Part shown: positions 4,852 through 20,562 of the stretch, one piece after another
Layout of the letters: each line of letters opens with the position of its first letter
How positions within the stretch are numbered: position 1 is the first letter of the stretch
Assembly (NCBI GenBank): GCA_037138135.1
Contig: JBAXIY010000003.1
Span: 1-47,657 of the forward strand
Length of the DNA stretch: 47,657 nt
Direction: 5' to 3'
From: Verrucomicrobiia bacterium
GTDB taxonomy: Bacteria > Verrucomicrobiota > Verrucomicrobiia > Limisphaerales > UBA11358
Program-made: the position numbers and the translations under genes
Notes under the pieces: model-generated
Seen by the model: only the letters and a program-made list of their open reading frames with translations
Databases searched by the model: none
What the model was told of the DNA's origin: nothing

Positions 4852-4888
4852 AAAATAAAAACGGCGACCGACTGGTGCCGATCGCCGT
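4852..4888 (-). terminator. intrinsic terminator closing the cytochrome cluster
   Basis: Minus-strand stem ACGGCGAUCGG / UCGGUCGCCGU followed by UUUUAUUUU, 30 nt after the stop at 4919. Confidence 0.75.
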
Positions 4889-4918: not shown

Positions 4919-5710
4919 TTACTCCACCGTCACTTGGGCGTCGTCCAGAATCACGGTGTATTTGTAGCCTGCACCGAAGTCCTTGTTCAAAGTAACGATG
5001 CCGGTCACCAGCACGGTGTCGCCGAGTTTGGCCGGAGTGCTGGTGGTGACGGTCAAATCGTTGTCGCTTTTATCGGCGCTACCGGAGCCGTCGCGGATGT
5101 GCAGCCAGTTTTTGCCCATGATCTGGGCGTTATACTTGACGACTTTGCCGCGCACGGAAACGGATTTTCCCGCGAGCATTTTCTGGCCGGAAAAGATTTC
5201 CGAAACGGTTTTGCCACCGTCGGCGCGCTTGATGGCGGTCAAGTCAACCTTGGCGGGAGCGGCGGCGGCGGGCTGACCGGTGAGCGAGGGGTGACCTGGT
5301 GGCAAGGCCGGAGCGGGCGCGTCGGTTAACGGCGGATGGCCGGGCGGCAACGCGGTCGCGGGGGCAACGGCGGCGGCGTCATTGACGGTGATGCTGCCGG
5401 TGAAATAGACGACATCAAAATCGCGCTTGAGCGATTGGCTGTGGTAATTGGGCATCGGCATGGCGGCACTGACGGCAACGGCATCGCCGACCTTCACGGC
5501 GAATTGCGTGGTGGCCGCCCACAATTTGTTGCTGCCGGTATCCACGCGCACATAGGTGTAGCCAGAAGTGTTCATGGCCTCGACGACTTTTCCAGAAAAG
5601 CTGGTGGCTTCCGCAGCCGCAACAGGAGCAGTCGCCGCGTCTTGGGCGGTGACGAATGGAACGGGGGCAAACAGCCCGGCGAGGAGGATGAGGTGTTTCA
5701 GGTTTTTCAT
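4919..5710 (-). CDS. NrfJ-like exported double OB-fold protein with two LPPGHP motifs
   Basis: Signal peptide; [21 protein letters not shown] and [23 protein letters not shown] domains separated by a Pro/Ala linker. Confidence 0.65.
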
Positions 5711-5779: not shown

Positions 5780-7540
5780 TCAATAGCTTTTGGCATTGTG
5801 TGCTTTATTTTGCCCTGAAGCATCATGGCAACTCAAGGTGCAGTTTCCGTGGTTGACGCCGGTAGAAGTGTATTTCAAAACCCCATTACGCGGCAGGACG
5901 TAAGTGGTATTGAAATTAATCAGGTGCGGCTGACCGGCAGCGTGAGAGTCATGGCAGGTCGTGCAGGCGGCTCTGAATTCCTCAATGTGTTTGCGGTGAT
6001 AACGCCAGCTCGTGGTCTGCTCGCTGTCCACCACCGTGCTGCTATGGCACTTGTAGCACAACGCAAAATTCGCCTGATTATAGGCCGTGCCATCCGTCAA
6101 CAATTGCCGGCGCTCGAGCAACGGAATGTAGGCGGAACCGTGCGGGCCTTGGGGAACGGTGCTGCCGCCGCCCGCCGCCTGATCGTTGTTATGGCAGTCG
6201 CCGCAGTAGGTGAGACTGGAAATGGTCCACGGCAGAATGAGGCTGGGCACGAGGGAATTTTTCCCGATGGCTTCTACAGGATGAAAAGAGGTGTTGCCGA
6301 CCGTGAATTCCAAGCGCGTGTTCGTCTGGGGAAATTGCCGTTGCACCCGAGCAGGACCGCGATTGCCGCTGTCGCCGTGGCAACGGAAACATAATTCATA
6401 TTCGTTCTGGATCTGACGGACTTCGGCGCCAGCAGCATTGACACCACGCACACCAGTGAGCGAAGCCGGGGCGGCGGGTGCAATGGGCGTCACGGCGCCG
6501 GAAGATTTGGTCGCGTGCGGATTATGGCAATCTTCACACGCGACGTGGCGCGGCGAATTGATTACATCCTCGGTCGGATCATGCACCCCGGCGGTCAATT
6601 GGATGGGATGCACGCTTGCCTTGTTGAACTCGGTGGCCAGGTTCTTGGCCGCCACGGTTCCGCTGTGACAGGAGAAACAATTTTGCTGATCGGGCGTGAA
6701 ATTCAATAACCGCTTGGCGGTTTGGGCAGCGTGCGGACGATGACAATTTTCACAGGCATTGGCCGCCACCGTGGTTTGCGTCGTGTGCGGCCAGGGATTT
6801 TCCCCGGAACCATTCCAAGTGGCCGTGGAGGTGGCATGGACGGATGCGTTCCATTGATTCGGCACATGGCAATCCTGACACAAGGCCGAAGCGGTATTGG
6901 CCTTCACCAGAAAACTTCCGTATTGGTTATTATGTGGATCGTGGCAGGAAGTGCATTGCATCTGGCCGTTGCGATCCAGGCGCACGTCCTGCACCAGCAG
7001 GCTGGGATCGCGCAACTCGCCGTTGGCCGTGACCAGTGAGGAATTGTAAACGAATGATACGGGATGATGCGCAGAAAGATCGGTGCCTACCAATGTCCGG
7101 CCGGCCGGAATCGTGACCGCGCCCGAGGGCATCGCAATGGACGCCGGGCGGCTGAACACCATACCGAGCGCCACCGTGCCATCATGACAACTCAAGCACA
7201 GTTTGGAGGAACCTGTCGGCTGGCCGACGGCGGCTTTGAGGGTGGAACTGGTGTAAGGCGTGTAGGCAGCGGTGGACATCTGATGATTCCACAGCGGACC
7301 GTCCGAGGAAGCGCTGTGCGGCGCGTGGCAAAAGACACAGACATCGGCTTCGGTGGCAGAACGGATTGTTCCGGGGCCACTGATGGCAAGATTGTGTTTT
7401 GAATAGATGATGCTGTTAGGATTTTGTCCAAACGAAATCGGAACGGCGAAAAATAGACCCACCCAGCCAGTCAGCAGCAAGCACGCAAACAGCCTGTAGG
7501 CGGCCAGCGCGCGTGGGTTGAGGTCAGGCGAATTTTTCAT
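5780..7540 (-). CDS. 12-heme c-type cytochrome with N-terminal OmcE-like tetraheme module
   Basis: 11 CxxCH (CVFCH, CLSCH, CTSCH, CQDCH, CENCH, CFSCH, CEDCH, CFRCH, CGDCH, CYKCH, CTTCH) plus CTLSCH (CxxxCH); N-terminal hydrophobic signal. Confidence 0.93.
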   Translation of the reverse strand: MKNSPDLNPRALAAYRLFACLLLTGWVGLFFAVPISFGQNPNSIIYSKHNLAISGPGTIRSATEADVCVFCHAPHSASSDGPLWNHQMSTAAYTPYTSSTLKAAVGQPTGSSKLCLSCHDGTVALGMVFSRPASIAMPSGAVTIPAGRTLVGTDLSAHHPVSFVYNSSLVTANGELRDPSLLVQDVRLDRNGQMQCTSCHDPHNNQYGSFLVKANTASALCQDCHVPNQWNASVHATSTATWNGSGENPWPHTTQTTVAANACENCHRPHAAQTAKRLLNFTPDQQNCFSCHSGTVAAKNLATEFNKASVHPIQLTAGVHDPTEDVINSPRHVACEDCHNPHATKSSGAVTPIAPAAPASLTGVRGVNAAGAEVRQIQNEYELCFRCHGDSGNRGPARVQRQFPQTNTRLEFTVGNTSFHPVEAIGKNSLVPSLILPWTISSLTYCGDCHNNDQAAGGGSTVPQGPHGSAYIPLLERRQLLTDGTAYNQANFALCYKCHSSTVVDSEQTTSWRYHRKHIEEFRAACTTCHDSHAAGQPHLINFNTTYVLPRNGVLKYTSTGVNHGNCTLSCHDASGQNKAHNAKSY

Positions 7541-8595
7541 AGCTTGCCGGTGTATCGAAAAATTTGAATGCGGTGGTTGTAAGCATCGGCCACGAAGATT
7601 TCGTTCGCGGCGTTGATGGCAATGGCGTTGGGCAGCCAGAACTGGCCGGGCGCCGAACCCGCTTCACCCCAGGCTAGCAGCAGGCGGTCGCGGCCATCAA
7701 AAATCTGCACGTTGTCGAACAGCGCATCCACCACATACACATGACCAGCGTGATCCACCGCCACACCTTTGGGCCGGGTGAAGTGGCCGGGACCATCGCC
7801 CACGCTGCCAAACGCGCGCAGAAACTGGCCTTGCACGTCGAAGACCTGGATCCGCTCGTTCAAGGAATCCGTGACGTAGATGCGGCCCACATCATCCACG
7901 CTGACGTGGGTGGGAAAATTGAATTCGCCCGACCCTTTACCGCGCCGCCCAAACTTGGAAATAAATTCGCCGCGCACGCCGCAGATGACGACCTGATGCA
8001 ATTGCGAGTCCGCGATGATGAGCCGGTCGCCGGCGAGAGCCAAGCCGGTGGGACGCGCCAGTTCGTTGGTGATGGCGAACTGTAATTTGCCTTTTTCGTC
8101 AAAGGCGAGCACTTTACCCAGCGCCGAATCGGCGACGTAAAAAGTTTGCTCGCGATGCACGGCAGCGACCGGCGAAAGGAAGTGTTGTTTGCCAACGGAA
8201 TTCCAGTGGAGCCATTTTTTGTGAGTCAGGTCGAGATAGCTGACGGTATTGGCACCGGTATCGGTGACCAACAGATTGCCCGCTGCGTCCAGCGAAATTC
8301 CAAACGGCTTATCCAGATTATGTTTGTCGCCACTGACGCCGGTAATCCAGTTGGCAAAACGCATCAGCATGAAGGGTTTTACGCCAATGTCGGCGGGGCC
8401 GGCAATGGCGCGAACATAAACGATGTAAGGTTCGGCGGGCGGCGGCGGCCAGGCGGGTGCATTGGTCGCGGAGGGAGCGGCGAATCCGATTCCGACGGCG
8501 AACAGCCAGAGCCAGACCGCGATCCAAACGCGCAGCCCACAGCGCGTCGGGCGCAGCGGATTCGTCGGCGGTTGAGATTGAAAAATCGGCGGCAT
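7537..8595 (-). CDS. NHL-repeat 6-bladed beta-propeller, exported
   Basis: Repeated F..P.GVAVD..G.VYV.D..N.RIQVFD units; WPPPPAEP N-terminal motif; 4-nt overlap with the next gene. Confidence 0.92.
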   Translation of the reverse strand: MPPIFQSQPPTNPLRPTRCGLRVWIAVWLWLFAVGIGFAAPSATNAPAWPPPPAEPYIVYVRAIAGPADIGVKPFMLMRFANWITGVSGDKHNLDKPFGISLDAAGNLLVTDTGANTVSYLDLTHKKWLHWNSVGKQHFLSPVAAVHREQTFYVADSALGKVLAFDEKGKLQFAITNELARPTGLALAGDRLIIADSQLHQVVICGVRGEFISKFGRRGKGSGEFNFPTHVSVDDVGRIYVTDSLNERIQVFDVQGQFLRAFGSVGDGPGHFTRPKGVAVDHAGHVYVVDALFDNVQIFDGRDRLLLAWGEAGSAPGQFWLPNAIAINAANEIFVADAYNHRIQIFRYTGKL

Positions 8596-8597
8596 GG

Positions 8598-10616
8598 CTA
8601 GAAAGTTCTTTTCAGGTAAACGTAAAGGCGACTGGTGTCAAACTCCTGATCGGGCTGACCGGGCGTGGTCGTGCTCTGGCCGTTGTATTCGTAACCGGCG
8701 CGGACGCTTAACTTGCCGCGCGTCCACGTCATGCCCGTCCGGCCTGAGCTAAGATATTGTTTGGTGCCTAACACGTCTTGAATGTTATAGCCGCCTTCCA
8801 CAAACCACGAGAGCGAAGACAGAAACTGAATGCTGTAGCGGCTGAGAAATTGATATTGGTTCTGGCTGCCGCTATCGGGATACGTATAGGAGGATTGATT
8901 CAACGTCACGCTGAAGGTCGAAGTGTCCGACGGCTGACAATTGAACATCTGAAATAAGCGCCAGGCCTGATACGCGGTGAAATTCGAATTGTAATCTTCA
9001 TATTCCGCCCCAGCGCGAAACCAGTGCCAGCCGTAATCCACGCCGCCTACCCAGTCAGTGAGTGTTTGCGTCTGCACCTGCGGCGGCGCATTGTTATCCA
9101 GCCAATTCAGCCGACCATAGATGCCAAACTTGTTGAATATATCCAGGCGAATTTGGGCGGTGGCGTTGAGCGAGTCGAATGAAGCGGTGTAGAGCGAATC
9201 GCTTTCGTAAGTCACCTTCACCACATCGCCGCTGTGCAAAATGGTGCTGGTGGGCACCAGCAAAATCTGCGTCAAGTCCCCGACCTGCACGAGTTGGTAA
9301 TCCACATTCAATTGGGTCGGTATACCGCCGGGACCTTTCACGACCACGGAGGACAAAATCACATTCGGATGATCGAGAAATGTCGGCGGACCGACCAGAT
9401 TCAACTGATGCGGTTCATCAATGGTGGTGAGGACATCGCCGTAGGAATTTTGATCCTGATGATCGGCGATGGCACCAGCCCCGATGGTCAACCGCCCCCA
9501 AGTCCCAAGTTTTTTGGTGTAATTTTCCGACACGCCAAAACCATAGCGGTCGTAGGTCGAGGAACTCCCCCCACCCGAATAATCTTGGTAGTTGCCGTGC
9601 ACATCCACTTGGGAAGTGAGGCTCTCATAGAGATGATGCCGGATGCCGCTAACGCCCTGCACCGTCGAATCCGTGACCGGATGCAATTGGTTGTGGCTGT
9701 AATCCACCGAATAAAAACTATCGAGATTAGGCGTGTGGGTGACGTTAACATTCTCGTTGGCGGTGACGGTCTGTAACTGTTGTCCCGAGTAATCCGACTC
9801 ACTGAAGCTGGCCCCGGTGGTGGCAACAATCTGCTTGTGCGCCCCAAAAGTTTCCGAATCCGAAATGCCGACCGACTGATTCAGGCTGGACGAGGTAGAA
9901 CCGACTTTGTTCGTCGTGTTGTAACTGTTGTTGACCGTGTTTTCAAATTGGTTGATGTGGTAAGTCAACGATGTCTGGCCGGATTGCCGGTGGTCGGCGC
10001 CAAAGAAATTGAAATACGTTTCCGAAACCTCCGTGAAATCGTTCAAGCCCGTGTCTTGCTCGTTCCGATACCCCGCGTCCGCCGTCATGGTCACCCGCTC
10101 ACTGTTGTAATTGACCACGCCGCCATAGCGCAGGCTGTCCACCGTGAAGGTATTGAACGAACCGTAGTCGCTATAAGTATGGTCTTGCGTCGCGAAGAAA
10201 GAAGCGTTGTAAGGTTTGGCCGAAAGAAAATTGAGTTGCGCCAGATACCGCATCAATTGCTGGCTGTCCTTGGTAGTCTGCGTATAACCCGGCCCCGTGG
10301 AAGACGATTGATTCCACCCCCACCCGATGTCACCACCCAAGTCAAACGTGACCAGATTTGGGTGATAAACATAACCCTGAGTCTGTAGTCCAACCAGCGG
10401 CGTCAGTGAAAGCTGATTGTAGGTGGAAGTTACGCCGTTATTGCGCGTGGTCTGGTGCGTGCCCTGCACTTCCATGCCAACACTCGCTTGCGGCGGACGC
10501 ATCAACTGGAACCAGCCCAATTCTTGCGACCGTCCCGTCCGCGCCAATCCCAGTGCGATGCCCACACCCAACAGGCGGGTGAACCAGCGACTGTGATGAT
10601 CTCCGGAAAAATTCAT
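8598..10616 (-). CDS. outer-membrane beta-barrel porin of a porin-cytochrome complex
   Basis: Signal peptide; Y/N/S/T/G-rich alternating amphipathic strands; C-terminal RLYVYLKRTF ending in Phe; flanked by multiheme cytochromes. Confidence 0.8.
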   Translation of the reverse strand: MNFSGDHHSRWFTRLLGVGIALGLARTGRSQELGWFQLMRPPQASVGMEVQGTHQTTRNNGVTSTYNQLSLTPLVGLQTQGYVYHPNLVTFDLGGDIGWGWNQSSSTGPGYTQTTKDSQQLMRYLAQLNFLSAKPYNASFFATQDHTYSDYGSFNTFTVDSLRYGGVVNYNSERVTMTADAGYRNEQDTGLNDFTEVSETYFNFFGADHRQSGQTSLTYHINQFENTVNNSYNTTNKVGSTSSSLNQSVGISDSETFGAHKQIVATTGASFSESDYSGQQLQTVTANENVNVTHTPNLDSFYSVDYSHNQLHPVTDSTVQGVSGIRHHLYESLTSQVDVHGNYQDYSGGGSSSTYDRYGFGVSENYTKKLGTWGRLTIGAGAIADHQDQNSYGDVLTTIDEPHQLNLVGPPTFLDHPNVILSSVVVKGPGGIPTQLNVDYQLVQVGDLTQILLVPTSTILHSGDVVKVTYESDSLYTASFDSLNATAQIRLDIFNKFGIYGRLNWLDNNAPPQVQTQTLTDWVGGVDYGWHWFRAGAEYEDYNSNFTAYQAWRLFQMFNCQPSDTSTFSVTLNQSSYTYPDSGSQNQYQFLSRYSIQFLSSLSWFVEGGYNIQDVLGTKQYLSSGRTGMTWTRGKLSVRAGYEYNGQSTTTPGQPDQEFDTSRLYVYLKRTF

Positions 10617-11983
10617 GGGCCAACCGCCGCCACCTTTCCGGCCGCCGGATTCAGCGCGCTGGCTTTAAGCAGCGATTTGTTATTCCCAACGTGCGGATCG
10701 TGACAGAGGGTGCAGGTCTTGCCCGCCGCCCCAGCGTGGCCTTTGACCGCTTGTAAATCCTTGTCGTCATGGCAATCGCCGCACAGCTTCAAAATATTTT
10801 TGGCCAGTAAGCCAGTCTCCGTTGATTGATGCGGTTTGTGGCAACCGGTGCAATCTTCAACCACGTCGTGCTTGAATTTGGCCTTCTCCAAAAAGTTGTC
10901 GTGGCAATCCCAACACAGCGCCGGTGCGGATTTTTTCACGAGCGCCTTTTTGTCCGTTGCGTGGGGGTTATGGCAGGCCAGACAATCGCCATCGCCCACG
11001 GGTTGATGCACCACCTTGGCGTTCTTGGCCTGAATGTCATCGTGACAATCCGCGCAAGTGTCCTTCACTGTTTTCTTCAACAGCCCTTTTATTTGGGTGG
11101 CGTGCGGATTGTGACACGCCAGACAATCGCCATCACCAACGGGCTGATGCACAAACTTTTTCTTAGCAATCAGGTCGTCGTGACAGGCGGCGCACGTTGC
11201 TTTCACCGGCTTTTTTAGGAGCTTCGGAATTTTCCCGGCGTGCGGCGTGTGACATTCCAGACAATCACCATCGCCGACCGGTTGATGCACAAATTTTTTC
11301 TTGGCCGTGAGATCGTCATGGCAATCAGCGCAGGTTTCTTTCACGGATTTTTTCAACAACCCTTTGAAATTGGTCGCGTGTGGCGCATGGCAATCCAGAC
11401 AATCACCAGATTCCACCGCCTGATGCTTGACCTTGCCGGCCGCCAGCGGATCGTCGTGACAAGTGAGGCACAGCGCATTGCCCGGAGTCAGCAGTAATTT
11501 TTTGTTGAACGATTGATGCGGCGCATGGCAGCTCTTGCAATCACCCTCCTCCACCGGCGGATGTTTGACTTTGCTAGCGACAAATTTTTTCTGCAGTTCC
11601 TGATGGCAGGCAAAACACGCTTCGCCCGGCTTGCCCTTCATCGTCTGGGAAAACGCCGATTCATGGCACGCCGTGCAATCGCGCTTCGCGTAAGGCGGAT
11701 GCACGATGAGCGGCGGGCGCGCCGGCGCCGCCGGCGTCGTCACTGTGACTTGGCCGGTGGCATTGGTGGTCGAAACGGGCGTCACCGCCGTGGTCGCTAC
11801 CGCATTCGTCGCGCCCGGTTGCGGCACGCCATCGAAGAAAAATGTCAGCCACTTCTGTTTGGTTTCCGTGGCGCAGCCCGCCAGAATCACCAGACCGCAC
11901 AGCAACCCAGCCAGTCCACTGCCAGTGCGACAGCGGCGGCGAAAATCAGTTTTTCCCAGAGGCGATTTCATGTGGTCGATCAA
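10613..11983 (-). CDS. 15-heme c-type cytochrome lipoprotein (doubled-CxxCH repeats)
   Basis: Lipobox ILAGC; 15 CxxCH motifs in H.PV..GDC..CH.PH...LLK....C..CH repeats. Confidence 0.93.
   Translation of the reverse strand: MIDHMKSPLGKTDFRRRCRTGSGLAGLLCGLVILAGCATETKQKWLTFFFDGVPQPGATNAVATTAVTPVSTTNATGQVTVTTPAAPARPPLIVHPPYAKRDCTACHESAFSQTMKGKPGEACFACHQELQKKFVASKVKHPPVEEGDCKSCHAPHQSFNKKLLLTPGNALCLTCHDDPLAAGKVKHQAVESGDCLDCHAPHATNFKGLLKKSVKETCADCHDDLTAKKKFVHQPVGDGDCLECHTPHAGKIPKLLKKPVKATCAACHDDLIAKKKFVHQPVGDGDCLACHNPHATQIKGLLKKTVKDTCADCHDDIQAKNAKVVHQPVGDGDCLACHNPHATDKKALVKKSAPALCWDCHDNFLEKAKFKHDVVEDCTGCHKPHQSTETGLLAKNILKLCGDCHDDKDLQAVKGHAGAAGKTCTLCHDPHVGNNKSLLKASALNPAAGKVAAVGP
10920..11470 (-). 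repeat. intragenic tandem repeats of a ~46-aa diheme unit
   Basis: GACAATC anchor recurs at 10981, 11122, 11260 and 11398 (periods 141, 138, 138 bp); HQPVGDGDCL appears three times. Confidence 0.9.
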
Positions 11984-12005: not shown

Positions 12006-13085
12006 TCAGTTCTTTTTCAAGAAACCATAGACGCTGACTTTCTGGCCGCCATACTGGCTGGTGACGAGAATGAGGTATTCGCATTGATAGCCGGGGGCGA
12101 CATACTTCTGAAAATAGCTGAGGTTGTCGTAATCCACTTTCACGGCCGCCGGTAAAATCACTTCGCCCTGCGTGCTGGCACCCGCCTGACCAAAGAACAG
12201 CAGCAACCGGCCCTCCGTATCAAAAATCTGCACGACCTGCGTGGCCGCATCCACGACATAAGCTAGTCCTTGACGATCCACCGCCACGCCCTTTGGACGC
12301 GCAAAGAGGCCCGCCGCCACGCCCTGACGACCAATCGTCCGCAAATATTTTCCCTCCAGATCAAACACCTGCACCACGTTGGCGCCGGTATCGGACACCA
12401 ACAACCGATTGCCTGCTTTATCAATCGCCAGATTCGTGGGACCGAACAGTCTGCCTTCATTCGTATTGCCGGTGCGCGGAATCGTGAACAGAAGTTGATG
12501 ACTCGTCTTGCCATAAACCCGCACGGCATGACCACTAAGATCGGTGACGTAAAGCCGGTCCGCCGTAAGCGCGACATCCGACGGCTTCAGTTCATCCTTC
12601 TTCCCGATGGCCTCAATAAAAGTTCCATCTTTCCCAAAAATCAAAACCTGCTGGCGGCCAGTGTCCGCCACATAACGCGTGCCGTCCTGATCAATGGTGA
12701 TGTTGATGGGCAACCGCAATTTGCCTTCACCTTGCGGTTCAAATATAGCGGCTCGGCGCGTTTGCAAGTCAAACACCTGGATCAAGCTGCCCACCGTTTC
12801 GCAAACAAAGATTTTCCCGTCATGAAAAGCCAGTCCATAAGGTTTCACCAGCGGGTTGAGCATCTTTTGATCGCCTGTGATAAAATCGGCAAACCCATGA
12901 GACCGTCCGAGGTTGGCCTCCGCTGCGAAAGCGGTCAGGAATTGAATGCGCGGCTCGTCCGGCTTGGGTGGGAAAAAAGTGTAAGTCTTGGGAGCTTTGG
13001 GGGCGGTGGTGCAACCATTCAGCAGCGCCAATAACAGGCAGACGTTGCCCAGCGCCTTGATGTGCGATTTAGTTTTGGTGTTCAT
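12006..13085 (-). CDS. NHL-repeat beta-propeller lipoprotein
   Basis: Likely start ATG 13085 (MNTKTK); lipobox LLNGC; FFPPKPDEPRIQFL motif; NHL blades. Confidence 0.9.
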   Translation of the reverse strand: MNTKTKSHIKALGNVCLLLALLNGCTTAPKAPKTYTFFPPKPDEPRIQFLTAFAAEANLGRSHGFADFITGDQKMLNPLVKPYGLAFHDGKIFVCETVGSLIQVFDLQTRRAAIFEPQGEGKLRLPINITIDQDGTRYVADTGRQQVLIFGKDGTFIEAIGKKDELKPSDVALTADRLYVTDLSGHAVRVYGKTSHQLLFTIPRTGNTNEGRLFGPTNLAIDKAGNRLLVSDTGANVVQVFDLEGKYLRTIGRQGVAAGLFARPKGVAVDRQGLAYVVDAATQVVQIFDTEGRLLLFFGQAGASTQGEVILPAAVKVDYDNLSYFQKYVAPGYQCEYLILVTSQYGGQKVSVYGFLKKN

Positions 13086-13242
13086 AGTGAAATTGCTTTT
13101 AAGCTTTACCAATATTTTACCCCGGCAAACCAATCCGACTCACCATAAATTGTCCAAGCCATACCAATTTCTGACCACGCATCCCTGCGGCTAGAAATTC
13201 ATCGCCAACATCGAAGATTTACTCGTTCATACCACCAACTTG

Positions 13243-13307: not shown

Positions 13308-16300
13308 TTATGGAGTCACGATAATGTAGTTAGTGCGCGTCAACGTGTTCGTTACGCCAAGGTTAATCGCCTTGAGCGTGACCGTATTAGTGCCAGCACT
13401 GAGGTAGGTGTTGGCCACATACCGGTTAGTGGAAGTGTTGCCGTCACCAAAGCTCCAAGCATAAGCCGTCGCATTAGAACTAAGATTGTCAAACACCACC
13501 GTCAACGGCGCCTTGCCGCCCGTGATTTCGCCGATGAAGGACGCCACCGGAGCCGCTTTCGCGACGACGTAGCTGGTGCGGGCCAACTGGTAGGTCACCC
13601 CGTTATAAACCCCCGAGAGCGTCACCGTATAGGTGCCGGCGTTGGTGTAGTTATTGACCGGATTGGTGTTCGTGGACGTTTGGCCATCACCAAAGTTCCA
13701 GAGGAGGTTGGACATGCCAGCACTCTTGTTGGTGAAGGAAACCGCCATTGGCACCACACCCAACGTGACACCGTTGGTGAAGTTTAGCCCGCCAACAGTG
13801 ACGTAATTATTGCTGCTCACCGATATGCTACCACTTCCAGACATATTGGCCCTCAAAGATGGCGAATATACACCGGGAATGGTGTAAGTATAGCTGACTG
13901 GCAACGTATCCGTCGTTTCCAAGCGGTCAGACGAGAACGTCCAGCGCCACCAATCAACACTGCCCGTATTGACGCTCTTGTTGGTGAAGTTCACCGTCAA
14001 CGGTGCCAGACCAGCCGTCACATCGGCGTTGAAGCTTACGGTCGAGAAGTCCCGGACTTTAATGTAAGACGAACGCGTCATTGTGCTCCCCGTAGCCGTG
14101 TCGGTATAACTCACGTCATACAGACCGGCGGCACTATAGGCATAGGTCACATAATTCAGAGCTTGGGTAACAATCGTGCCCGGGCCACCGAAGTTCCATG
14201 TGCCACCCGTCGTGGCGCTGAGGTTAGTGAACGTGACATTCGTTCCGACATAAGTCGTGATAAGCGCAGCATAAGTGACTGGATAGACCGAGAAGCTGGC
14301 TTTGTAGGCAGGAGCGGCAGTCATCTGCCCCACCACTAGAGCCTCGGCATTGGTCAACATGGTCTTGGTAAAGGTGGGATTATGCACCCCATAGCTACCA
14401 TCATGAGCAACCATGTAGATATTGAACCGAGCCTTGCGAATGGCGTCCGGAATCACCAACTGCATATTGTCGTTGGTTCCAGTCGGCACTCCGCCGGTCA
14501 ACTTGGGATTAAAAGCCGAAGGCGGACCTGCAACAGCCGCGCCGCTGGGATTGCCCAATTCACCCGGCGTGGTGTATTCCCAAGCCATCGAACCATAGTT
14601 CGTCCGCAGGATGTCCGGAGCCAGTCCGGGCGTAATTGCCCATTGATTCAAAAGCGACACCACGCGGGCGATGCTATTCGATTCCTGATACTGGAGATCC
14701 TCGATTTTTCCAAAGAACGCCTCGTCAGTCAGACCTGAATGGCACTGCACGCAGTTCTGGAAGTCCACTTCATAGGTGTGGCCGGTGACTTTGGTCGTGG
14801 CATTCACGTCATAAATCGGCACGTGGCAAGTAGCGCATTGATTCGTGTTGCCAGTGGAACCGTGAGCGTGAATGGTGGCCGTCAGGTAATAATTCGTGTC
14901 AGGTTTACCAACCAGAATATTGTATTGCGGCGAAAAATGCGGTGAGCGGCCATAGCCGGAGCTATTGGTGCTGTAATTGGTCACTCCGCCGACGACATAA
15001 GGAATCAGCGGCGACATCAACTTAATTCCCGAAACATTGTTCGTCGAAGTAACGACGTTCGTGGCTAATACTGTTTCCCAGGGCGTGTTTGGATCGGGCG
15101 TCACGCTAACCACATTGGTCGCCGTGCTAATCACTGCGTTGGTGACCAAGGTATAGGCCTGACCATCCCAACTAGCGCCACGGGAATTGTGACATTGACC
15201 GCAGACCTGAATTTTCGCGTTATACGTGCTGTCGAACGTGGTGTTGTTGTAAACGGTGTTGGTGGTAAAAGCTCCTAACGCATTGGTCGAGCGCAACGTT
15301 CCCAGATAGGAATCCGTTGTCGTCGGCATGGTATAGAAGTTGGTGGACCAAGTGGTGTAACGCAACTGCGCGATGTTATTCGTGGAGTGCGGATCATGGC
15401 AGGTCGCACAGACAGCAGTCCAAGCCGCGCCATCATTGGGTGCCGCAAAGTTAATTGGATGATGCGGCTGGCCGGAAAGCGCGTCATTATATTCGCTCAA
15501 CATCGCGTAGCGTGTGGCCGCCGAATGGCAGACGCCGCACTGGGCCGCGCGGGATTGGCCGGGATCAACTGCCGAGCCGGGCACGAAGCCGCTGTTCAGA
15601 ATACCGGACGTGGCATTAGTCACGCCAATGACATTGGTATTGCCCGCAGTGGTGATGACCACGTTGGTATAACCCGAGTAAACAATTTTATTGGTCACAT
15701 CGGTGGCGCCGGCGATTACGGTCAAATTGGTCACCGCGTAGCCATAATAAACCTTGGTTCCAATGATCACCGTGTTGGTGAAGTAGTTGGTAAAGGCGGC
15801 GTTTCCATACTTGATGTCCGCATTCACTTGGGCATGCAGACTTTCCGCATATTCAGTATAGGTGGGATGGTGGCTATCCTGATGGCAACTACCGCAGATT
15901 TTTGGATCAATGGTGATCGCCGGACGAATCAGGGCATGATCGCTGTTCTTGTGCCAGCCCGCCGGGCCATGGCAGCTTTCGCAGCCGACGTTGGCTAGTT
16001 GCGGCGTGGTCGAACTAGAAGTGAAACCGGTCGGCTGATTCATGCCCACCGAGTGACACTGCACACAGCTGGCGTTATTGCCCATGCCGATGGCTTGAAG
16101 CGTCGCCAGTGCGCTGGCGTGGTGGGTGCCCGCATAATTGGTGTAAATATTTCCGTGGCAGCCGGCACAATCACCGGAACCGGCATAAAAATTCGTCTGG
16201 TTCAGGCGAAAATACCAGTTGTTACCAGATTCTGGTCGCGCCGCTGTGACCGACCAAGCATAGTCGGTTGCTTCAGTGCTGACGAACGGAAACCAGTTAA

Positions 16301-16565
16301 CCAGATTGGTCGTGGCTTCAACAGTGCTCCAGCCGCGCATACCATACCAGGAAAACGTCACGTTATTGGTGCCGTAGTCTGGGACAATCGTCGTCTGTCC
16401 CGGCACGCCACGGGTGCCGTTTGTAGCTTCATTCTCCACCGGAATAGAGGCCGGCCAGCGATACATGTCCGCGCGCGCAGTGGACGCAAACATCCCGCCC
16501 AGAGCCAACCCAGCCGTCAAGACGGCCAAAGCGTGGCGCAGGGAGGTTTGATAGATTTTTTTCAT
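13308..16565 (-). CDS. 9-heme extracellular/surface cytochrome c with four C-terminal PKD domains
   Basis: Signal peptide (..TARA); CAGCH, CVQCH, CESCH, CGSCH, CGVCH, CATCH, CGQCH, CATCH, CVQCH; ARFNIYMVAHDGSYGVHNP helical end; PKD motifs (APLTVNF..WNFGDG..Y..AGTYTVTL). Confidence 0.9.
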   Translation of the reverse strand: MKKIYQTSLRHALAVLTAGLALGGMFASTARADMYRWPASIPVENEATNGTRGVPGQTTIVPDYGTNNVTFSWYGMRGWSTVEATTNLVNWFPFVSTEATDYAWSVTAARPESGNNWYFRLNQTNFYAGSGDCAGCHGNIYTNYAGTHHASALATLQAIGMGNNASCVQCHSVGMNQPTGFTSSSTTPQLANVGCESCHGPAGWHKNSDHALIRPAITIDPKICGSCHQDSHHPTYTEYAESLHAQVNADIKYGNAAFTNYFTNTVIIGTKVYYGYAVTNLTVIAGATDVTNKIVYSGYTNVVITTAGNTNVIGVTNATSGILNSGFVPGSAVDPGQSRAAQCGVCHSAATRYAMLSEYNDALSGQPHHPINFAAPNDGAAWTAVCATCHDPHSTNNIAQLRYTTWSTNFYTMPTTTDSYLGTLRSTNALGAFTTNTVYNNTTFDSTYNAKIQVCGQCHNSRGASWDGQAYTLVTNAVISTATNVVSVTPDPNTPWETVLATNVVTSTNNVSGIKLMSPLIPYVVGGVTNYSTNSSGYGRSPHFSPQYNILVGKPDTNYYLTATIHAHGSTGNTNQCATCHVPIYDVNATTKVTGHTYEVDFQNCVQCHSGLTDEAFFGKIEDLQYQESNSIARVVSLLNQWAITPGLAPDILRTNYGSMAWEYTTPGELGNPSGAAVAGPPSAFNPKLTGGVPTGTNDNMQLVIPDAIRKARFNIYMVAHDGSYGVHNPTFTKTMLTNAEALVVGQMTAAPAYKASFSVYPVTYAALITTYVGTNVTFTNLSATTGGTWNFGGPGTIVTQALNYVTYAYSAAGLYDVSYTDTATGSTMTRSSYIKVRDFSTVSFNADVTAGLAPLTVNFTNKSVNTGSVDWWRWTFSSDRLETTDTLPVSYTYTIPGVYSPSLRANMSGSGSISVSSNNYVTVGGLNFTNGVTLGVVPMAVSFTNKSAGMSNLLWNFGDGQTSTNTNPVNNYTNAGTYTVTLSGVYNGVTYQLARTSYVVAKAAPVASFIGEITGGKAPLTVVFDNLSSNATAYAWSFGDGNTSTNRYVANTYLSAGTNTVTLKAINLGVTNTLTRTNYIIVTP

Positions 16566-16620: not shown

Positions 16621-17373
16621 TTACTTATTGTGGCAACTGCGGCAGAGCAAACTGCCCACACCGCCCTGCGTGCCGTTAATTTTGACCAGCTTGGGATTGC
16701 TGTTGATGTCAAACGGTGTGCCTTCCTGATTGTGAACGTCATGGCAGGAACTGCATTCCAACGCGTGATTGGCACCGAGCAAAAATCCTTTGATGGTCAT
16801 GTCATTACCCGGAACGAAGGTGCCGTTATCGGGCGTCAGCACCGTCCGCGTGTCGGGGTTATACAACCATTTGTCCTGATTAGGTCCCGCGCCGACGATG
16901 GAAGCATCGTAGGTCAGAGAAATCGGATGCGAGTGGGTCAAGTCCGTGCCCAGATTGGCGCTGTTCGTAATCGTGATGCCTACCCCGCCGACGGTGACAC
17001 CGCCATAAGTATTGATGGCCACTGTGCCGTCATGGCAGCTCAAGCAAGCCTTGGAAGGGCCGTTTGGTTGGGCGGCAATGGTCGCCTGTAGCGAAGTGGC
17101 CGTATCTCCGAGCGCGGTGACGTTGGCCGTATTATACATCTTGAAGGTAGAAGCCGTGGTGGCGTGCGACCAAAGCGGAATCACGCTGCTATCGGCATGG
17201 TGAGGCGTATGGCAAGCGCTACAAACGCTCTTGGGATCTGCCGGATCGTTGTTCCAGCTGCTGCCAGCCGGGCCGGAAAAATCATGTGGACTACCGACGA
17301 CGCTCGCCCGAGCGGTGAGGGTTAACAGTGTGCCCGTAAGCACAGTCAGAGTGATGAGGTTGAGTGTTTTCAT
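16621..17373 (-). CDS. omcE: tetraheme cytochrome c, OmcE-like (candidate cytochrome nanowire subunit)
   Basis: 250 aa with signal peptide. Motif order PHDFS / CSACHTPH..IPLW..TASTFKMY / CLSCHDG / ANLGTDL..HP / LECSSCHDVH / GSLLCRSCH.K matches the Geobacter OmcE sequence as I recall it. Confidence 0.82.
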   Translation of the reverse strand: MKTLNLITLTVLTGTLLTLTARASVVGSPHDFSGPAGSSWNNDPADPKSVCSACHTPHHADSSVIPLWSHATTASTFKMYNTANVTALGDTATSLQATIAAQPNGPSKACLSCHDGTVAINTYGGVTVGGVGITITNSANLGTDLTHSHPISLTYDASIVGAGPNQDKWLYNPDTRTVLTPDNGTFVPGNDMTIKGFLLGANHALECSSCHDVHNQEGTPFDINSNPKLVKINGTQGGVGSLLCRSCHNK

Positions 17374-17552: not shown

Positions 17553-18617
17553 TCAGCCATGACAAAGCACTAGTCCGCCAGCGGACACCACTACGGCAGG
17601 CTTCGTGAATGGCGAATTAAAACGCGCCATCAATTCCGCCGTATGTTCGGCGATGATCTGCTCGCACAAGGCCAGTTCCTGGCTGCGATTCTTGGTGTTC
17701 TCACGAACGACTGCTTCAAGATCGTCAATGTCGTAAAGGAAAACGTTCGGAAGTTCCGCCACTGCCGGATCGATATCGCGCGGCACCGCGATGTCCACGA
17801 GCACCAGCGGACGATTGCCGCGCGCCGGTAAAATTTTTGCCACATCCTCGCGCTTCAAAACAATTTCTGGGCTGCCGGTCGAGCTGACCAAAATATCAGC
17901 GTCCATCATCGCCGCCGCCGAATCTTCGATCCGCACCGCGCGCCCGCCAAATTCCGTCGCGAGCTTTTCTGCGCGTTCCACCGAGCGGTTGGCCACTAAC
18001 ACCGTCTTAGCGCCACGCTTAGCCAGATGCTTCACGCAGGCTTCACCCATTTTGCCTGCACCCAAAATCATGACCGTCTTCGAACTCAAGTCGCGGTCAA
18101 ATACTTTCTCCGCCAGTTCTACTGCCACGCTGCCGACCGACGTCGCGCCGCGGCCGATGCCGGTATTCGTGCGGACCGCCTTGACTACCGCAAACGCCGT
18201 CTGGAAGAGTCGATTCATTTTCTTACCAACGAGGCCGGCGTCTTTCGCGGCTTGATACGCATTCTTAACCTGTCCGGTAATTTCCGTTTCCCCAATCACA
18301 AGGGAGTCAATGCCGCTGGCGACAGCAAATAAATGTTCTGCTGCCGCCGCGCCTTCCTTGACATAGAGATGCGGGGTAAAATCAAAATCGCTGCCCGTGA
18401 GTTCCTGAAACAGCTGCTGGACGCGACCGTGAATCCAAGTCGAGACTCCGTAAATCTCCACGCGATTGCAGGTGGAAAGCAGCACCACTTCTTCCAGCCC
18501 GCCGCGCAACTTGAGCCGGCAGCCGCTGCATTGCAGGCGCGAGCGCTGGACGGCCAACTTCTCACGCACCTCCACGGGCGTGGTCTTGTAGCTCAATCCG
18601 GCAACAAAGATTTTCAT
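17553..18617 (-). CDS. hemA: glutamyl-tRNA reductase
   Basis: LSTCNRVEIY, HLF.VASGIDS.VIGE.EI.GQVK, GAGKMG, DIAVPRDI motifs; short C-terminus (354 aa). Confidence 0.96.
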   Translation of the reverse strand: MKIFVAGLSYKTTPVEVREKLAVQRSRLQCSGCRLKLRGGLEEVVLLSTCNRVEIYGVSTWIHGRVQQLFQELTGSDFDFTPHLYVKEGAAAAEHLFAVASGIDSLVIGETEITGQVKNAYQAAKDAGLVGKKMNRLFQTAFAVVKAVRTNTGIGRGATSVGSVAVELAEKVFDRDLSSKTVMILGAGKMGEACVKHLAKRGAKTVLVANRSVERAEKLATEFGGRAVRIEDSAAAMMDADILVSSTGSPEIVLKREDVAKILPARGNRPLVLVDIAVPRDIDPAVAELPNVFLYDIDDLEAVVRENTKNRSQELALCEQIIAEHTAELMARFNSPFTKPAVVVSAGGLVLCHG

Positions 18618-18751: not shown

Positions 18752-20479
18752 TCATATTTCCTTACCGCTTTCCAAAACGCTGGATTTATCGGAACGCCGC
18801 TGGGCGGCCGCCGGCTCGAGCGGGTGTTCGTGCGCTTGAAATTCCTCGGAAATGCGACCGTCCAGGCAGGCTGTATTTAGCGGATAAACTTCGGGATCAA
18901 AGATGACATGGTAGAAGTGCCAGACGACGATCGCGAGGCAGGCCAGCACCGCTTCGTAGTAATGAATGGTCGTCGCCACGGCCACCACCCAGCGGGGAAA
19001 ATATTGCGTCACGTCAATCTTCAGCCAGATCGCCAGACCGGTCGCCCCCATGATGATGGTGCCCCAGACGACCGCCCAGTATTCCATTTTTTCGGCATAG
19101 CCGAAGCGTCCGATTTTGGGTTTATCCTTTGTAAATCCACCTAAATATCGCACCGCCTGCCAAACGTCGGCCAGATCTTTTTTCACCGGAAATAGGTCCG
19201 CCACCAACTTCCTTCCGTCGCGTGTGGCGAGAAGATATATTAAATGATACAGGCCGATGGCCAGCATCACGATGCCCGCGACGCGATGCGACCAGCGGCG
19301 AAACGGCTCACTGGAGCCCAGAACCTTGGCCAGCCAGGAGTCTGGAAATTTCAACGCAAAGCCGGTGACGGCCAGCGCCATGAAACTCGTCGCCAACACC
19401 AGATGTTGCCAGCGTTGCGAGGTGGTCATTCGGACCACCGGCCGCTCGGTCATCCGTAAACGCGCCGCGGTTTTTTTTATGAACAGAATGCCGTTGTGGG
19501 CCAGCATTGCGCCGATGGTGACAAAAATGAGCGTAAGATAAATGCGCCGCGTCCAGTTATTCAACCGGCTGCCAAAATCCGTGCCGCCCGCCTGCCCGTC
19601 CGGTGCCACATGGATTTTACCCTGCGAAAATTCCTGATTCGCTCCCGGATGACACTTGCCGCACGTCGTGACGAGATTGATTTTGTTGATGGTGGAATTG
19701 GTATCCGCCGACGGCAGGATTTTATGATAGCCGTGGCAGCTCGCGCAGTTCGCCGCCACAGTCGAACCATATTGCGCCGCCAGCCCGTGATAGCTTTCAA
19801 AAAAGGTTTTTACGCGATCAGCGGGCAGATTGAATTTCGTATTCAACCGCTCGGACGCATGGCAGCGACTGCAAACATCTTCCGAAATCGCCATGGCCGA
19901 GCTGCTTTTGAGCGAACGGATTTTATGTTCGTCATGGCAGCCGGTGCAGGTGGGCGCGTCGTGCGATCCCGCCATGACGGCCTGACCATGCACGCTGACC
20001 TGCCACTCGCGCGCCTCCCGGTCGTGACACGCGCCGCAGGTTTCGGCCTGCCGGGAAAAATAAATCGGTGAGGTCGGCGAATCGGCGGAAGCCATCTCGT
20101 GTGAATCATGGCAATCGCGGCACGTGGCCGCATCAGCATGCCCAGACTTCAACGCGAGGCCGTGAACACTGGCGTTAAAACTTTCAGTCTGGCGCGCGTG
20201 ACATAAAGCGCAATTCACCATGGCCACCGGCTTATTATCATCCGGGTGCTTGGCAGTCAGGTCGGCGTGGCAGCTGATGCAGGCGTTGGTCCGGTGCGCG
20301 GACAATTTGAATTTCGCCACATCCACAAAGAGTGAAACCGGCTTGCCGGCGGCATTGGTTTTGACAAGCGTGTTATCGCCATGGCAATCAAGACAGTCGC
20401 TGTCCTTCACACCGCCAAACATCGGCGTCACCACTAGGCCGAGCGCCAGCAGAAAACAAAACAGGGGATTCATTTCCAT
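18752..20479 (-). CDS. cbcL: CbcL-like inner-membrane quinol oxidase: 9 c-type hemes fused to a cytochrome b domain
   Basis: Likely start 20479 or 20473. Motifs CLDCH, CISCH, CALCH, CRDCH, CGACH, CTGCH, CSRCH, CASCH, CGKCH, then TM helices with b-heme His (RWQH, WSHR, IHYYEA..WHFYH) and EKMEYWA. Confidence 0.85.
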   Translation of the reverse strand: MEMNPLFCFLLALGLVVTPMFGGVKDSDCLDCHGDNTLVKTNAAGKPVSLFVDVAKFKLSAHRTNACISCHADLTAKHPDDNKPVAMVNCALCHARQTESFNASVHGLALKSGHADAATCRDCHDSHEMASADSPTSPIYFSRQAETCGACHDREAREWQVSVHGQAVMAGSHDAPTCTGCHDEHKIRSLKSSSAMAISEDVCSRCHASERLNTKFNLPADRVKTFFESYHGLAAQYGSTVAANCASCHGYHKILPSADTNSTINKINLVTTCGKCHPGANQEFSQGKIHVAPDGQAGGTDFGSRLNNWTRRIYLTLIFVTIGAMLAHNGILFIKKTAARLRMTERPVVRMTTSQRWQHLVLATSFMALAVTGFALKFPDSWLAKVLGSSEPFRRWSHRVAGIVMLAIGLYHLIYLLATRDGRKLVADLFPVKKDLADVWQAVRYLGGFTKDKPKIGRFGYAEKMEYWAVVWGTIIMGATGLAIWLKIDVTQYFPRWVVAVATTIHYYEAVLACLAIVVWHFYHVIFDPEVYPLNTACLDGRISEEFQAHEHPLEPAAAQRRSDKSSVLESGKEI

Positions 20480-20535
20480 GATTTTCGGCTGGCATCGGCG
20501 AAAGCGCTGCCCTCGATTTGCCAACTTCTCGCCTG

Positions 20536-20562
20536 TTTTTGATGCCAATTCACCATCAAAAA
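20536..20562. promoter_or_regulatory. inverted repeat, candidate operator upstream of cbcL
   Basis: TTTTTGATG-N9-CATCAAAAA, perfect 9-bp arms, in the divergent cbcL/aspC intergenic region. Confidence 0.45.

Follow-up and report, generated by a model that had tools for sequence, protein, structure and literature searches.

In the available text of Petersen et al. 2026 (PMC13712944), the omcE cluster of Desulfuromonadia encodes OmcE together with a pair of multihaem cytochromes, a pair of beta-propeller lipoproteins and a large beta-barrel, and the same authors select OmcE homologues whose genes lie beside those of such a barrel and such lipoproteins. They ask which component serves as the anchor, terminator or tip of the wire, and how cytochrome nanowires start, stop and are wired to the cell is an openly stated gap in the accessible parts of PMC13712944 and PMC12307469. 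The uetA-J cluster of Tenderiales encodes the tetrahaem UetA, the barrel UetC, the NHL proteins UetH and UetI and then an 'undecahaem' cytochrome, UetJ, which has eleven CXXCH motifs and a bar-like model and of which it is said that UetJ and UetA 'may interact' (10.1101/2022.05.06.490989, available text); Gallionellaceae UetJ candidates have 11 and 12 haems (PMC10734462, available text). Neither of these two texts, as far as available, links UetJ or UetA to OmcE. In Limisphaerales, conserved, transcribed clusters termed 'EET4' were read as Mtr-like conduits by Fiorito et al. (10.64898/2026.05.27.727921). A figure legend of that preprint lists 'OmcE-like' multihaem cytochromes (MHCs) with 8-13 haems, and its main text, in the version available, does not contain the words 'nanowire', 'tetraheme', 'NHL' or 'propeller'. 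A porin-MHC cluster in bog Verrucomicrobia was first noted by He et al. 2017 (PMC5615132, available text). Here we describe a 12-haem c-type cytochrome gene located in a 47,657-nucleotide stretch of a Limisphaerales genome (positions 1 to 47,657 of contig JBAXIY010000003.1, assembly GCA_037138135.1; hereafter the window), whose product joins an OmcE-fold tetrahaem head to an eight-haem extension. The coordinates of all features are collected in Table 1.

By layout, the 12-haem protein (P0001) fits UetJ of the uet clusters or the extracellular MHC of omcE-type clusters, which were compared by description. With UetJ of Candidatus Tenderia electrophaga and Gallionella it shares, in the descriptions available, eleven CXXCH motifs, a signal peptide, the lack of any other named domain, a long bar-shaped model and a gene that comes after two NHL genes, the cluster also encoding an extracellular tetrahaem (UetA) and a large barrel (UetC). 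The cluster in the window differs from uet in having no peptidyl-prolyl isomerase, cupredoxin or c7 trihaems, and in having a 15-haem lipoprotein and a 9-haem PKD protein. With EET4, which may be the same cluster, and the bog 'novel porin-MHC' cluster it has in common the phylum, the habitat type and a syntenic set of extracellular MHC, periplasmic MHC and porin. The cluster type is already in print, and the protein family probably is as well. The head of the 12-haem protein shares with OmcE the fold, four CxxCH motifs and four distal His, and the gene has NHL propellers and a large barrel as neighbours; co-encoding with a large beta-barrel and beta-propeller lipoproteins, the trait used to select OmcE homologues, was found here too, the barrel being a predicted one. 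OmcE, however, is a free-standing subunit of ~200-230 amino acids that stops two residues after haem 4, whereas the 12-haem protein has 586 amino acids and continues for 360 residues with eight more haems. Because haem 4 is followed by these eight haems, it was not classed as an OmcE subunit.

A motif scan identified eleven CxxCH motifs and one CxxxCH motif, in the order CVFCH, CLSCH, CTSCH, CQDCH, CENCH, CFSCH, CEDCH, CFRCH, CGDCH, CYKCH, CTTCH and, last, CTLSCH. The initial annotation, made from the letters of the window and a list of its open reading frames (ORFs), had noted that the first four haems repeat the motif series of the standalone tetrahaem of the same cluster and that eight further haems follow, the last with a CxxxCH motif. 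Both statements held. The motif strings quoted are all present in both proteins, which are 33% identical (76/233) in a BLASTP alignment that is collinear across the four haem motifs and far beyond chance (E 2e-22). When the 12-haem protein was compared with all PDB chains by phmmer, the only cytochromes matched were the OmcE structures 7TFS of G. sulfurreducens (E 3.2e-23, query 41-225 on chain 23-230) and 9YUQ of D. soudanensis (E 6e-19); one antibody chain appeared at chance level (E 0.14). The standalone tetrahaem matched both structures more weakly (E 3.3e-17 and 2e-11, respectively). A full-length AlphaFold2 (AF2) model built on a 50-sequence family alignment, with a predicted local distance difference test (pLDDT) of 83 and a predicted template modelling score (pTM) of 0.81, arranged the 12 haems as a rod. 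Foldseek with this model returned 7TFS as the sole significant match (E 7e-7) and no significant match for the extension, for which the best was OmhA at E 0.55. VIA-align superposed the head on 7TFS with Z 13.4 and a root-mean-square deviation (rmsd) of 2.7 A over 176 of 202 residues at 36% identity (model 48-226 = chain 30-231), and hhalign aligned the head with the tetrahaem family at E 1.4e-55. When 175 OmcE-like modules were aligned together, the eight His columns of OmcE (four in the motifs and four distal) were conserved at 98-100% in 81 heads; they correspond to H49, H72, H75, H119, H159, H200, H203 and H225 of the 12-haem protein. The 7TFS model begins at residue 30, beside its first His, and the N-terminal His likewise comes early in the mature proteins of the 12-haem family. 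These results showed that the first ~180 mature residues are an OmcE-fold tetrahaem module, as the initial annotation had supposed.

Complex models were calculated without haem for the mature 12-haem protein (residues 39-586, 50-row alignment) and the mature standalone tetrahaem (residues 24-250, 44-row alignment). The interface score ipSAE was 0.77 in each of three runs, while the controls gave 0.27, 0.00 and 0.00. Of 80 solved complexes, 58 reached the mark set for this score, as did 2 of 110 mismatched pairs; these counts are only approximate here because our own alignments were used. The three runs had at least 96% of the contacts in common, and the pLDDT of the partner was at least 84. 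The interface included residues 40, 43-45, 50, 52-54, 65-69, 72, 74-84, 109-111, 114 and 189-204 of the 12-haem protein (its haem-1 face) and residues 82-95, 138-149, 169, 210 and 234-250 of the tetrahaem (its haem-4 face), with the tightest contacts between H75 and its neighbours and tetrahaem residues 147-149, and between residues 65-68 and tetrahaem residues 238-244. In the model, haem 1 of the head would be set beside haem 4 of the tetrahaem, the head-to-tail geometry expected of an OmcE-type contact.

The 12-haem protein is not a rare fusion; it belongs to a large and widespread family. A word-indexed search, in which 8000 candidates were scored, yielded 6290 relatives at E<=1e-3; the top 120 of these are 56-87% identical and 467-650 amino acids long. 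When 1.84 billion representatives were searched exhaustively, the relatives numbered 5749 at E<=1e-3, 3595 at <=1e-10 and 550 at <=1e-30. With one genome taken for each species, a relative is encoded in 424 of the 456 pattern matches. By their record titles, lake, peat and sediment genomes are among the sources of relatives. The best 80 of the 424 matches, whose flanks vary in length, were compared ORF by ORF with the window proteins by BLAST. Judged by their titles, these loci cover at least nine phyla, with Verrucomicrobiota the closest and Ignavibacteria, Calditrichota, Bacteroidota/Chlorobiota, Nitrospirota, Candidatus Thiodiazotropha, Thermodesulfobacteriota, Kiritimatiellia and Acidobacteriota as the others. 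One conserved core was seen, in either of two orders: tetrahaem, NHL2, periplasmic cytochrome (5 to 23 haems), ~660-700-amino-acid putative barrel, NHL1 and 12-haem gene; or NHL1, 12-haem gene, tetrahaem, NHL2, pentahaem and barrel. When ORFs are judged strictly, at least 50 of the 80 loci have an NHL1-like gene immediately upstream of the 12-haem gene, and 64 have a homologue of the putative barrel. A standalone OmcE-like ORF (4 or 5 haems, <330 amino acids) is present in 57 of the 80, and 21 of the 23 loci without one have <9 kb on at least one side. Since the tetrahaem lies 8.3-9.2 kb from the 12-haem gene in the Verrucomicrobial order, it can be missed where flanks are short. Where both flanks measure at least 9 kb, 34/36 loci carry the standalone ORF, and the two exceptions also hold an OmcE-like ORF, in one case in a 380-amino-acid stop-to-stop frame that exceeds the length cut (L017) and in the other as a 216-amino-acid ORF with two motifs (L051). 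The co-occurrence of such fusions with omcE-like genes, which the initial annotation had put forward as a check, was thus found, and neither of the outcomes named there as refuting (a head without the OmcE fold, or fusions occurring apart from omcE-like genes) was observed. Across phyla, the genes inherited along with that of the 12-haem protein are those of a separate OmcE-like tetrahaem, two NHL proteins, a periplasmic multihaem lipoprotein and a ~670-amino-acid putative barrel. The best 120 shorter proteins matched by the head were mostly contig-end fragments of the 12-haem family and tetrahaems, with no Geobacter-named protein among them. A match to NF041028 was sought in 14 control genomes and found in none.

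The relationships of the modules were analyzed in a tree of 175 sequences (85 heads, 8 split tetrahaems, 60 four-haem and 8 five-haem standalone proteins, and 14 tetrahaems from a Thermodesulfobacteriota sample), calculated by a quick maximum-likelihood method (LG+G4, midpoint root) with support from the Shimodaira-Hasegawa-like approximate likelihood ratio test (SH-aLRT) only and containing some long branches. Heads and split forms made up one clade (89 rows, SH-aLRT 99), the standalone proteins of the 12-haem clusters formed another (72 rows, SH-aLRT 98), and six true OmcE orthologues fell outside both, so the 12-haem heads differ from OmcE in being a clade of their own. As the two clades are separate and travel together, the head and the standalone tetrahaem are old paralogues. 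A separate, co-travelling paralogue is what would be expected of an anchor subunit according to the accessible part of Petersen et al. (PMC13712944).

The split forms come from the Thermodesulfobacteriota sample (401 genomes, 46 with a match at E<=1e-10). All eight further loci taken from it have an NHL gene, a 4-haem OmcE-like gene (225-332-amino-acid frames) and an 8-haem gene (365-447 amino acids) adjacent to each other, and an NHL1-like gene precedes the split tetrahaem in 8/8. The split octahaem corresponds to residues ~250-586 of the 12-haem protein and shares with it the C-terminal ...KSY or ...KGY, and the split tetrahaems nest in the head clade (group support 96), matching 7TFS only at E 1.6e-18 and 2.1e-14. 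This fission into tetrahaem and octahaem genes argues that the OmcE-like unit and the octahaem act as one physical body. The omcP/omcO pair of Geobacter might be an instance of this split form. Two canonical omcE-type loci (L133 and L142) were also found, with the order 10-haem, 8-haem, NHL, tetrahaem, NHL. Their tetrahaems are true OmcE orthologues that match 7TFS over the full length (E 3.2e-37 and 4.1e-46), and both multihaem cytochromes encoded beside each belong to the paired-CXXCH type and lie outside the 12-haem family. Two genomes have both a split and a canonical locus (G067 with L123 and L133; G256 with L118 and L142). Concatenated forms exist too: four OmcE-like modules stand in tandem in P0243 (1400 amino acids, 16 haems) and three in P0269; P0210 (24 haems) has 12 haems before its head and P0244 has 46 haems, both ending in a 12-haem family unit; and in P0147 an NHL propeller precedes the 12-haem protein, as a real fusion or a frameshifted gene call.

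Several variations on these loci were noted in passing. In the split loci (L116-L123, e.g. L116:9464-12562) there follow conserved genes for proteins of ~405, ~570-610 (ending RVTFVE/D) and ~320 amino acids. Eight loci (L041, L047, L048, L061, L064, L065, L071 and L072) encode five-haem OmcE-like proteins of 218-231 amino acids besides the tetrahaem, matching the '5-heme OmcE-like' proteins known from PSI-BLAST in the available text of Petersen et al. (PMC13712944). A second, very divergent 13-haem paralogue occupies a 780-985-amino-acid frame in L024, L028, L032 and L038 (e.g. L024:13693 onward); its heads have the N-terminal His in 0/4 cases, and in L024 and L028 a large NHL protein (577-764 amino acids) comes after it. 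L013 and L027 carry the label 'uncultured Bifidobacteriaceae' but show 56-58% identity and the synteny typical of Verrucomicrobial loci, which probably reflects a mislabelled bin.

The eight-haem extension was modelled alone on a 58-row alignment (pLDDT 91.7, pTM 0.90) and formed a long haem rod. Against 48,161 PDB representatives, VIA gave MtrA of MtrCAB (6R2Q_A, residues 78-319) as the best match, with Z 8.0, at the border of a 'common arrangement', and rmsd 4.8 over 202 of 265 residues at 26% identity; further matches were OmcS (Z 6.8), OmhA (5.2) and OcwA (5.0), and the full-length model matched MtrA at Z 7.7. The DmsE/MtrA family model TIGR03508 recognized the 12-haem protein weakly, at 57.0 bits, far below its cut-off of 192.2, which places the protein outside this family; the 15-haem lipoprotein of the cluster is a much better match (182.7 bits against the cut-off of 192). 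PF22113 (MtrC/MtrF domain II/IV) matched residues 376-533 with 46.7 bits, above its cut-off of 30. No MtrC chain appeared among the fold-search matches of the full protein and the extension, and TIGR03507 gave no match to the protein.

Part of the extension looks like additional, diverged versions of the tetrahaem module seen in the head and not like foreign material. Haems 5-8 aligned with the tetrahaem family in hhalign with a probability of 98% and E 5.7e-14 over 134 columns. All 8 His are collinear in this alignment, which follows a path that places H235 on the N-terminal His and continues through CENCH-RPH, CFSCHSGTVA, VHPIQL, CEDCHNPH and CFRCH. Haems 9-12 aligned with the same family at E 3e-5 over 46 columns, and modules 2 and 3 with each other at E 1.1e-10 over 77 columns. 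A control comparison of haems 5-8 with the unrelated paired-CXXCH 15-haem family gave E 1.3e-14 over 70 columns. Profile E-values are therefore inflated by the haem motifs, and only the collinearity of the eight His favours a true second module; 7TFS (chain 30-231) superposed on extension residues 9-164 (residues 234-389 of the full protein) with a Z of only 2.8. A clean triple OmcE repeat was considered for the protein and set aside, weakened by the 15-haem control, against which module 2 scores equally well, and by the weak module 3. At the very end of module 3, a near-invariant C-terminal Tyr (...KSY; window 5783-5800, minus strand) follows a three-stranded sheet around the CxxxCH haem in the 12-haem family. 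This Tyr motif might serve for docking.

In the 50-sequence family alignment all 12 haem motifs are invariant, and 15 non-motif His are conserved: nine are invariant (H49, H203, H235, H270, H311, H342, H420, H518 and H533) and six are present in at least 90% of the sequences (H75, H159, H320, H332, H467 and H515). With 15 such His for 12 haems, there are enough for bis-His ligation of every haem within the chain. The first invariant His, H49, lies 5-12 residues past an AxA-like cleavage site in 50/50 members. Lipobox-like strings occur in 4/50, in register in none, which indicates type I signal peptides and no lipid anchor. The 12-haem protein is a secreted, non-lipidated cytochrome. The genes for NHL2, the 15-haem cytochrome, the putative barrel, NHL1 and the 12-haem protein are joined by 4-nucleotide overlaps or gaps of at most 22 nucleotides, and the 12-haem gene is therefore in the same operon as the putative porin, which agrees with its earlier assignment to a porin operon.

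We propose that the 12-haem protein serves as the terminal unit linking a porin-cytochrome conduit with the OmcE-like tetrahaem, a role to which we give somewhat less than an even chance. Only the haem-1 (N-terminal) face of the head would be free, because its haem-4 end continues covalently into haems 5-12, and this face would bind the haem-4 (C-terminal) face of the tetrahaem as neighbours do in an OmcE filament. The C-terminal rod would sit in or on the barrel and meet the 15-haem lipoprotein there; electrons would pass from the quinol oxidase to the 15-haem protein, through haems 12 to 1 and on to one or more tetrahaems and the acceptor. A place at the base is weakly favoured over one at the tip because of the MtrA-like rod, the lack of a lipid anchor, the translational coupling to the barrel and NHL1 genes and the existence of a separate periplasmic 15-haem partner. 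Having no lipid anchor, the protein would need a protein socket. A further step, which we regard as possible but rather doubtful, is that OmcE-type wires have their missing anchor in this family: as a covalent stub made up of as many as three OmcE-like modules, the protein would complete and terminate, or seed, the filament with its haem-1 face and plug into the barrel with its MtrA-like tail, and Desulfuromonadia-like genomes would use the split pair encoded away from omcE. The latter arrangement would explain why no candidate was seen within the omcE operons.

PapH, the terminator, and FimH, the tip subunit, are encoded with the major subunit of chaperone-usher pili. The likeness of the 12-haem protein to them is a works-like analogy only (a subunit-like module with an extra part, at one end of a polymer), with no relation in sequence or fold; the pilus-terminator analogy was raised by Petersen et al. 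(PMC13712944, available text). OmcS-like proteins, OscC and OmcT, are described in the omcS companion operon in the accessible part of PMC13194489. In the collection of papers searched, no publication was found that ties the 12-haem protein to a filament end beyond the open question of Petersen et al., within texts taken without their figures and supplements, and its anchor role is a specific, testable and still unpublished hypothesis. As a candidate the family would be concrete, widespread and co-inherited, its polarity being defined in that one end alone can bind a subunit, and its modular build links the OmcE-type and Mtr-type haem wires. The anchor idea can be tested because one of the loci (L056) is, by its title, from Ignavibacterium album, of which a cultured strain exists. 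Should the idea prove wrong, the family would still stand as an outer cytochrome found widely in electron-transfer clusters of the omcE/uet type.

Several observations weigh against the terminal-unit and anchor roles. The canonical OmcE clusters L133 and L142 have no 12-haem gene in the cluster, so OmcE wires need none in cis. The concatemers (P0243, P0210) show the OmcE-like module as a building block, and the head may accordingly be a plain wire segment. The MtrA match of the extension is borderline by VIA's own guide, and OmcS scores Z 6.8 on the same model. In the standalone tetrahaem a ninth His is conserved (H70 in PLWxH, 97% of 60 sequences); the column is occupied by His in 0/6 true OmcE orthologues (Arg in the 7TFS alignment) and in 28% of heads, including H86 of the 12-haem protein. 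Nine His are associated with a self-satisfied, non-extending unit by Petersen et al. (PMC13712944, accessible part), whose nine-His candidate is Dsoud_2415, and going by this residue the standalone tetrahaem could be such a unit. Finally, the initial annotation had postulated an OmcE-type polymerisation face. The docking of the haem-1 face on the haem-4 face of the tetrahaem (0.77 against 0.27) speaks for that face, but the OmcE filaments 7TFS and 9YUQ are already solved and the pass may be a memory of them, so that the model shows likeness and not binding. The same annotation had the extension docking on the porin and the protein nucleating or capping the wire as further possibilities; for the docking, the analysis offers only the borderline MtrA-like fold (Z 8.0), and the interpretation as a whole is supported in part.

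An ordinary outer-face conduit cytochrome like MtrC or OmcB, with the head as an inherited four-haem block, the tetrahaem as a separate surface or diffusible cytochrome and no filament, is the main alternative. OmcE-like modules are reused inside many larger cytochromes, OmcE is among the families that gain haem motifs by fusion (10.1101/2025.05.29.656830, available text), and a Limisphaerales cluster was modelled as an Mtr-like conduit by Fiorito et al. (10.64898/2026.05.27.727921, available text). The PF22113 score (46.7 bits, cut-off 30) and the ninth conserved His of the tetrahaem clade point the same way. The four distal His of the heads, the extreme N-terminal one included, are nevertheless kept at 98-100%, and the strict pairing with an OmcE-like gene across phyla and the head-to-tail complex model would be superfluous in such a cytochrome. 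MtrC and OmcB are lipoproteins, unlike the 12-haem family, which has no lipid anchor. We consider this explanation unlikely, though one to be taken seriously.

A position of the 12-haem protein at the distal tip of a tetrahaem filament, as a cap whose eight extra haems contact minerals or humics, is improbable. The docking geometry of the complex model fits a tip equally well, and two-domain tip subunits are the rule in chaperone-usher pili. Nevertheless, the best structural match of the rod is the porin-threaded MtrA and not a surface reductase, and the 12-haem gene is translationally coupled to the barrel-NHL genes.

The 10 haems of MtrA span a membrane, and the MtrA-like rod formed by the 12 haems, together with the missing lipid anchor, could also be read as a periplasmic or trans-barrel wire in the reversed orientation, with the head and its tetrahaem carrier in the periplasm and the C-terminal beta-sheet end outside. 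This is very improbable: OmcE and its relatives are extracellular (PMC13712944, available text), UetJ and UetA are both predicted to be extracellular (10.1101/2022.05.06.490989, available text), and the operon already has a dedicated periplasmic 15-haem lipoprotein. Self-polymerisation into a thicker wire with 12 haems per subunit is the least probable of these readings, for all that the N-terminal face is free and of the donor type and cytochrome wires are known whose subunits have 4, 6 and 8 haems (PMC9473688), as the C-terminal end, with its CxxxCH motif, beta-sheet and conserved terminal Tyr, is unlike the haem-4 end of OmcE.

Table 1. Features of the 12-haem cytochrome cluster and its surroundings in the window.
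Feature	Coordinates	Strand	Evidence
Terminator-like hairpin closing the operon, 12 pairs, T-run	4861..4888	-	Strongest terminator-like site of scan
Secreted haem-less, Cys-free protein, 263 aa (amino acids), last operon gene	4919..5710	-	No Pfam/NCBIfam family
12-haem c-type cytochrome (586 aa; P0001), UetJ-like by layout	5780..7540	-	ORF and translation
Module 3, residues 396-586, haems 9-12, CxxxCH end, small beta-sheet (strands 556-585), C-terminal Tyr	5783..6355	-	hhalign, model
Module 2 with haems 5-8 (residues 229-395), probable diverged second copy of the OmcE-like module; H235, H270, H311, H342 invariant	6356..6856	-	hhalign
Module 1, OmcE-fold tetrahaem head, residues 40-228, haems 1-4, distal His H49/H75/H159/H203	6857..7423	-	phmmer, Foldseek, VIA, hhalign
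Sec type I signal peptide, ~residues 1-38, predicted cleavage after SFG	7427..7540	-	Read from sequence
NHL beta-propeller 1 (NHL1); 4-nucleotide overlap (translational coupling) with 12-haem gene	7537..8595	-	Pfam NHL 3.3e-27
Putative outer-membrane beta-barrel (porin), 672 aa	8598..10616	-	Composition, C-terminal Phe, alternating segments
15-haem lipoprotein cytochrome, paired-CXXCH / DmsE-MtrA type	10613..11983	-	15 motifs, PF09699 4.9e-89, lipobox LAGC
NHL beta-propeller 2 (NHL2), lipoprotein (LLNGC)	12006..13133	-	Pfam NHL 1.6e-18
9-haem cytochrome, three PKD domains, 1085 aa; insert of Limisphaerales-type clusters	13308..16565	-	Motif and Pfam scan
Standalone OmcE-like tetrahaem (250 aa), predicted partner	16621..17373	-	7TFS E 3.3e-17
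hemA (glutamyl-tRNA reductase, haem synthesis)	17553..18617	-	TIGR01035 2.5e-114
9-haem cytochrome c fused to dihaem cytochrome b	18752..20548	-	9 motifs, PF01292 7.9e-16

The 672-amino-acid protein had no match in Pfam or NCBIfam. It has a signal-like N-terminus and 22 alternating-hydrophobic segments, compared with 11.1 +/- 2.8 in 200 shuffles, which, judged from the amino acid sequence, points to a beta-barrel; the equivalent genes are called beta-barrels in the available text of PMC13712944 and 10.1101/2022.05.06.490989, and a Porin_4 cluster of the Atlas, at 0.89, is a lead only. The true start of the 15-haem gene is probably an ATG located 12 nucleotides inside the ORF. The 9-haem PKD gene sits between the tetrahaem and NHL2 only in Verrucomicrobial loci. 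The 9-haem c/b fusion is likely to be the inner-membrane quinol oxidase that feeds the system, and its layout resembles that of Geobacter CbcL. Homologues of the 263-amino-acid protein lie beside the 12-haem gene in Verrucomicrobiota, Nitrospirota and Bacteroidota-type loci. This protein contains two ALPPGHP(P/S)LT repeats, and its look-alikes in the Atlas are in clusters that are unnamed, 'tRNA_anti-like' or GW-domain.

Just downstream of the operon are rpoN (sigma-54; 374-1915, minus strand) and an LptF/G permease gene (3645-4802, minus strand). A sigma-54 promoter near the cluster was looked for and rejected: the consensus with 1 mismatch gave one site, at 45317, where 2.55 are expected by chance.

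An RNA library of the probable source sample (run X20) included one 193-nucleotide contig identical to positions 6132-6324, inside the 12-haem gene, and no contig on this gene outside that interval. The best-covered part of the cluster was the 9-haem PKD gene, with seven contigs (six identical and one with a single mismatch). The contigs give a weak hint that the 12-haem gene is transcribed and cannot be used to rank genes; the RNA contig could also be DNA carry-over, which would count against this hint. DNA of the 12-haem gene is present in lake and freshwater metagenomes of several studies, and 4/20 listed runs hold at least half of the sampled words.

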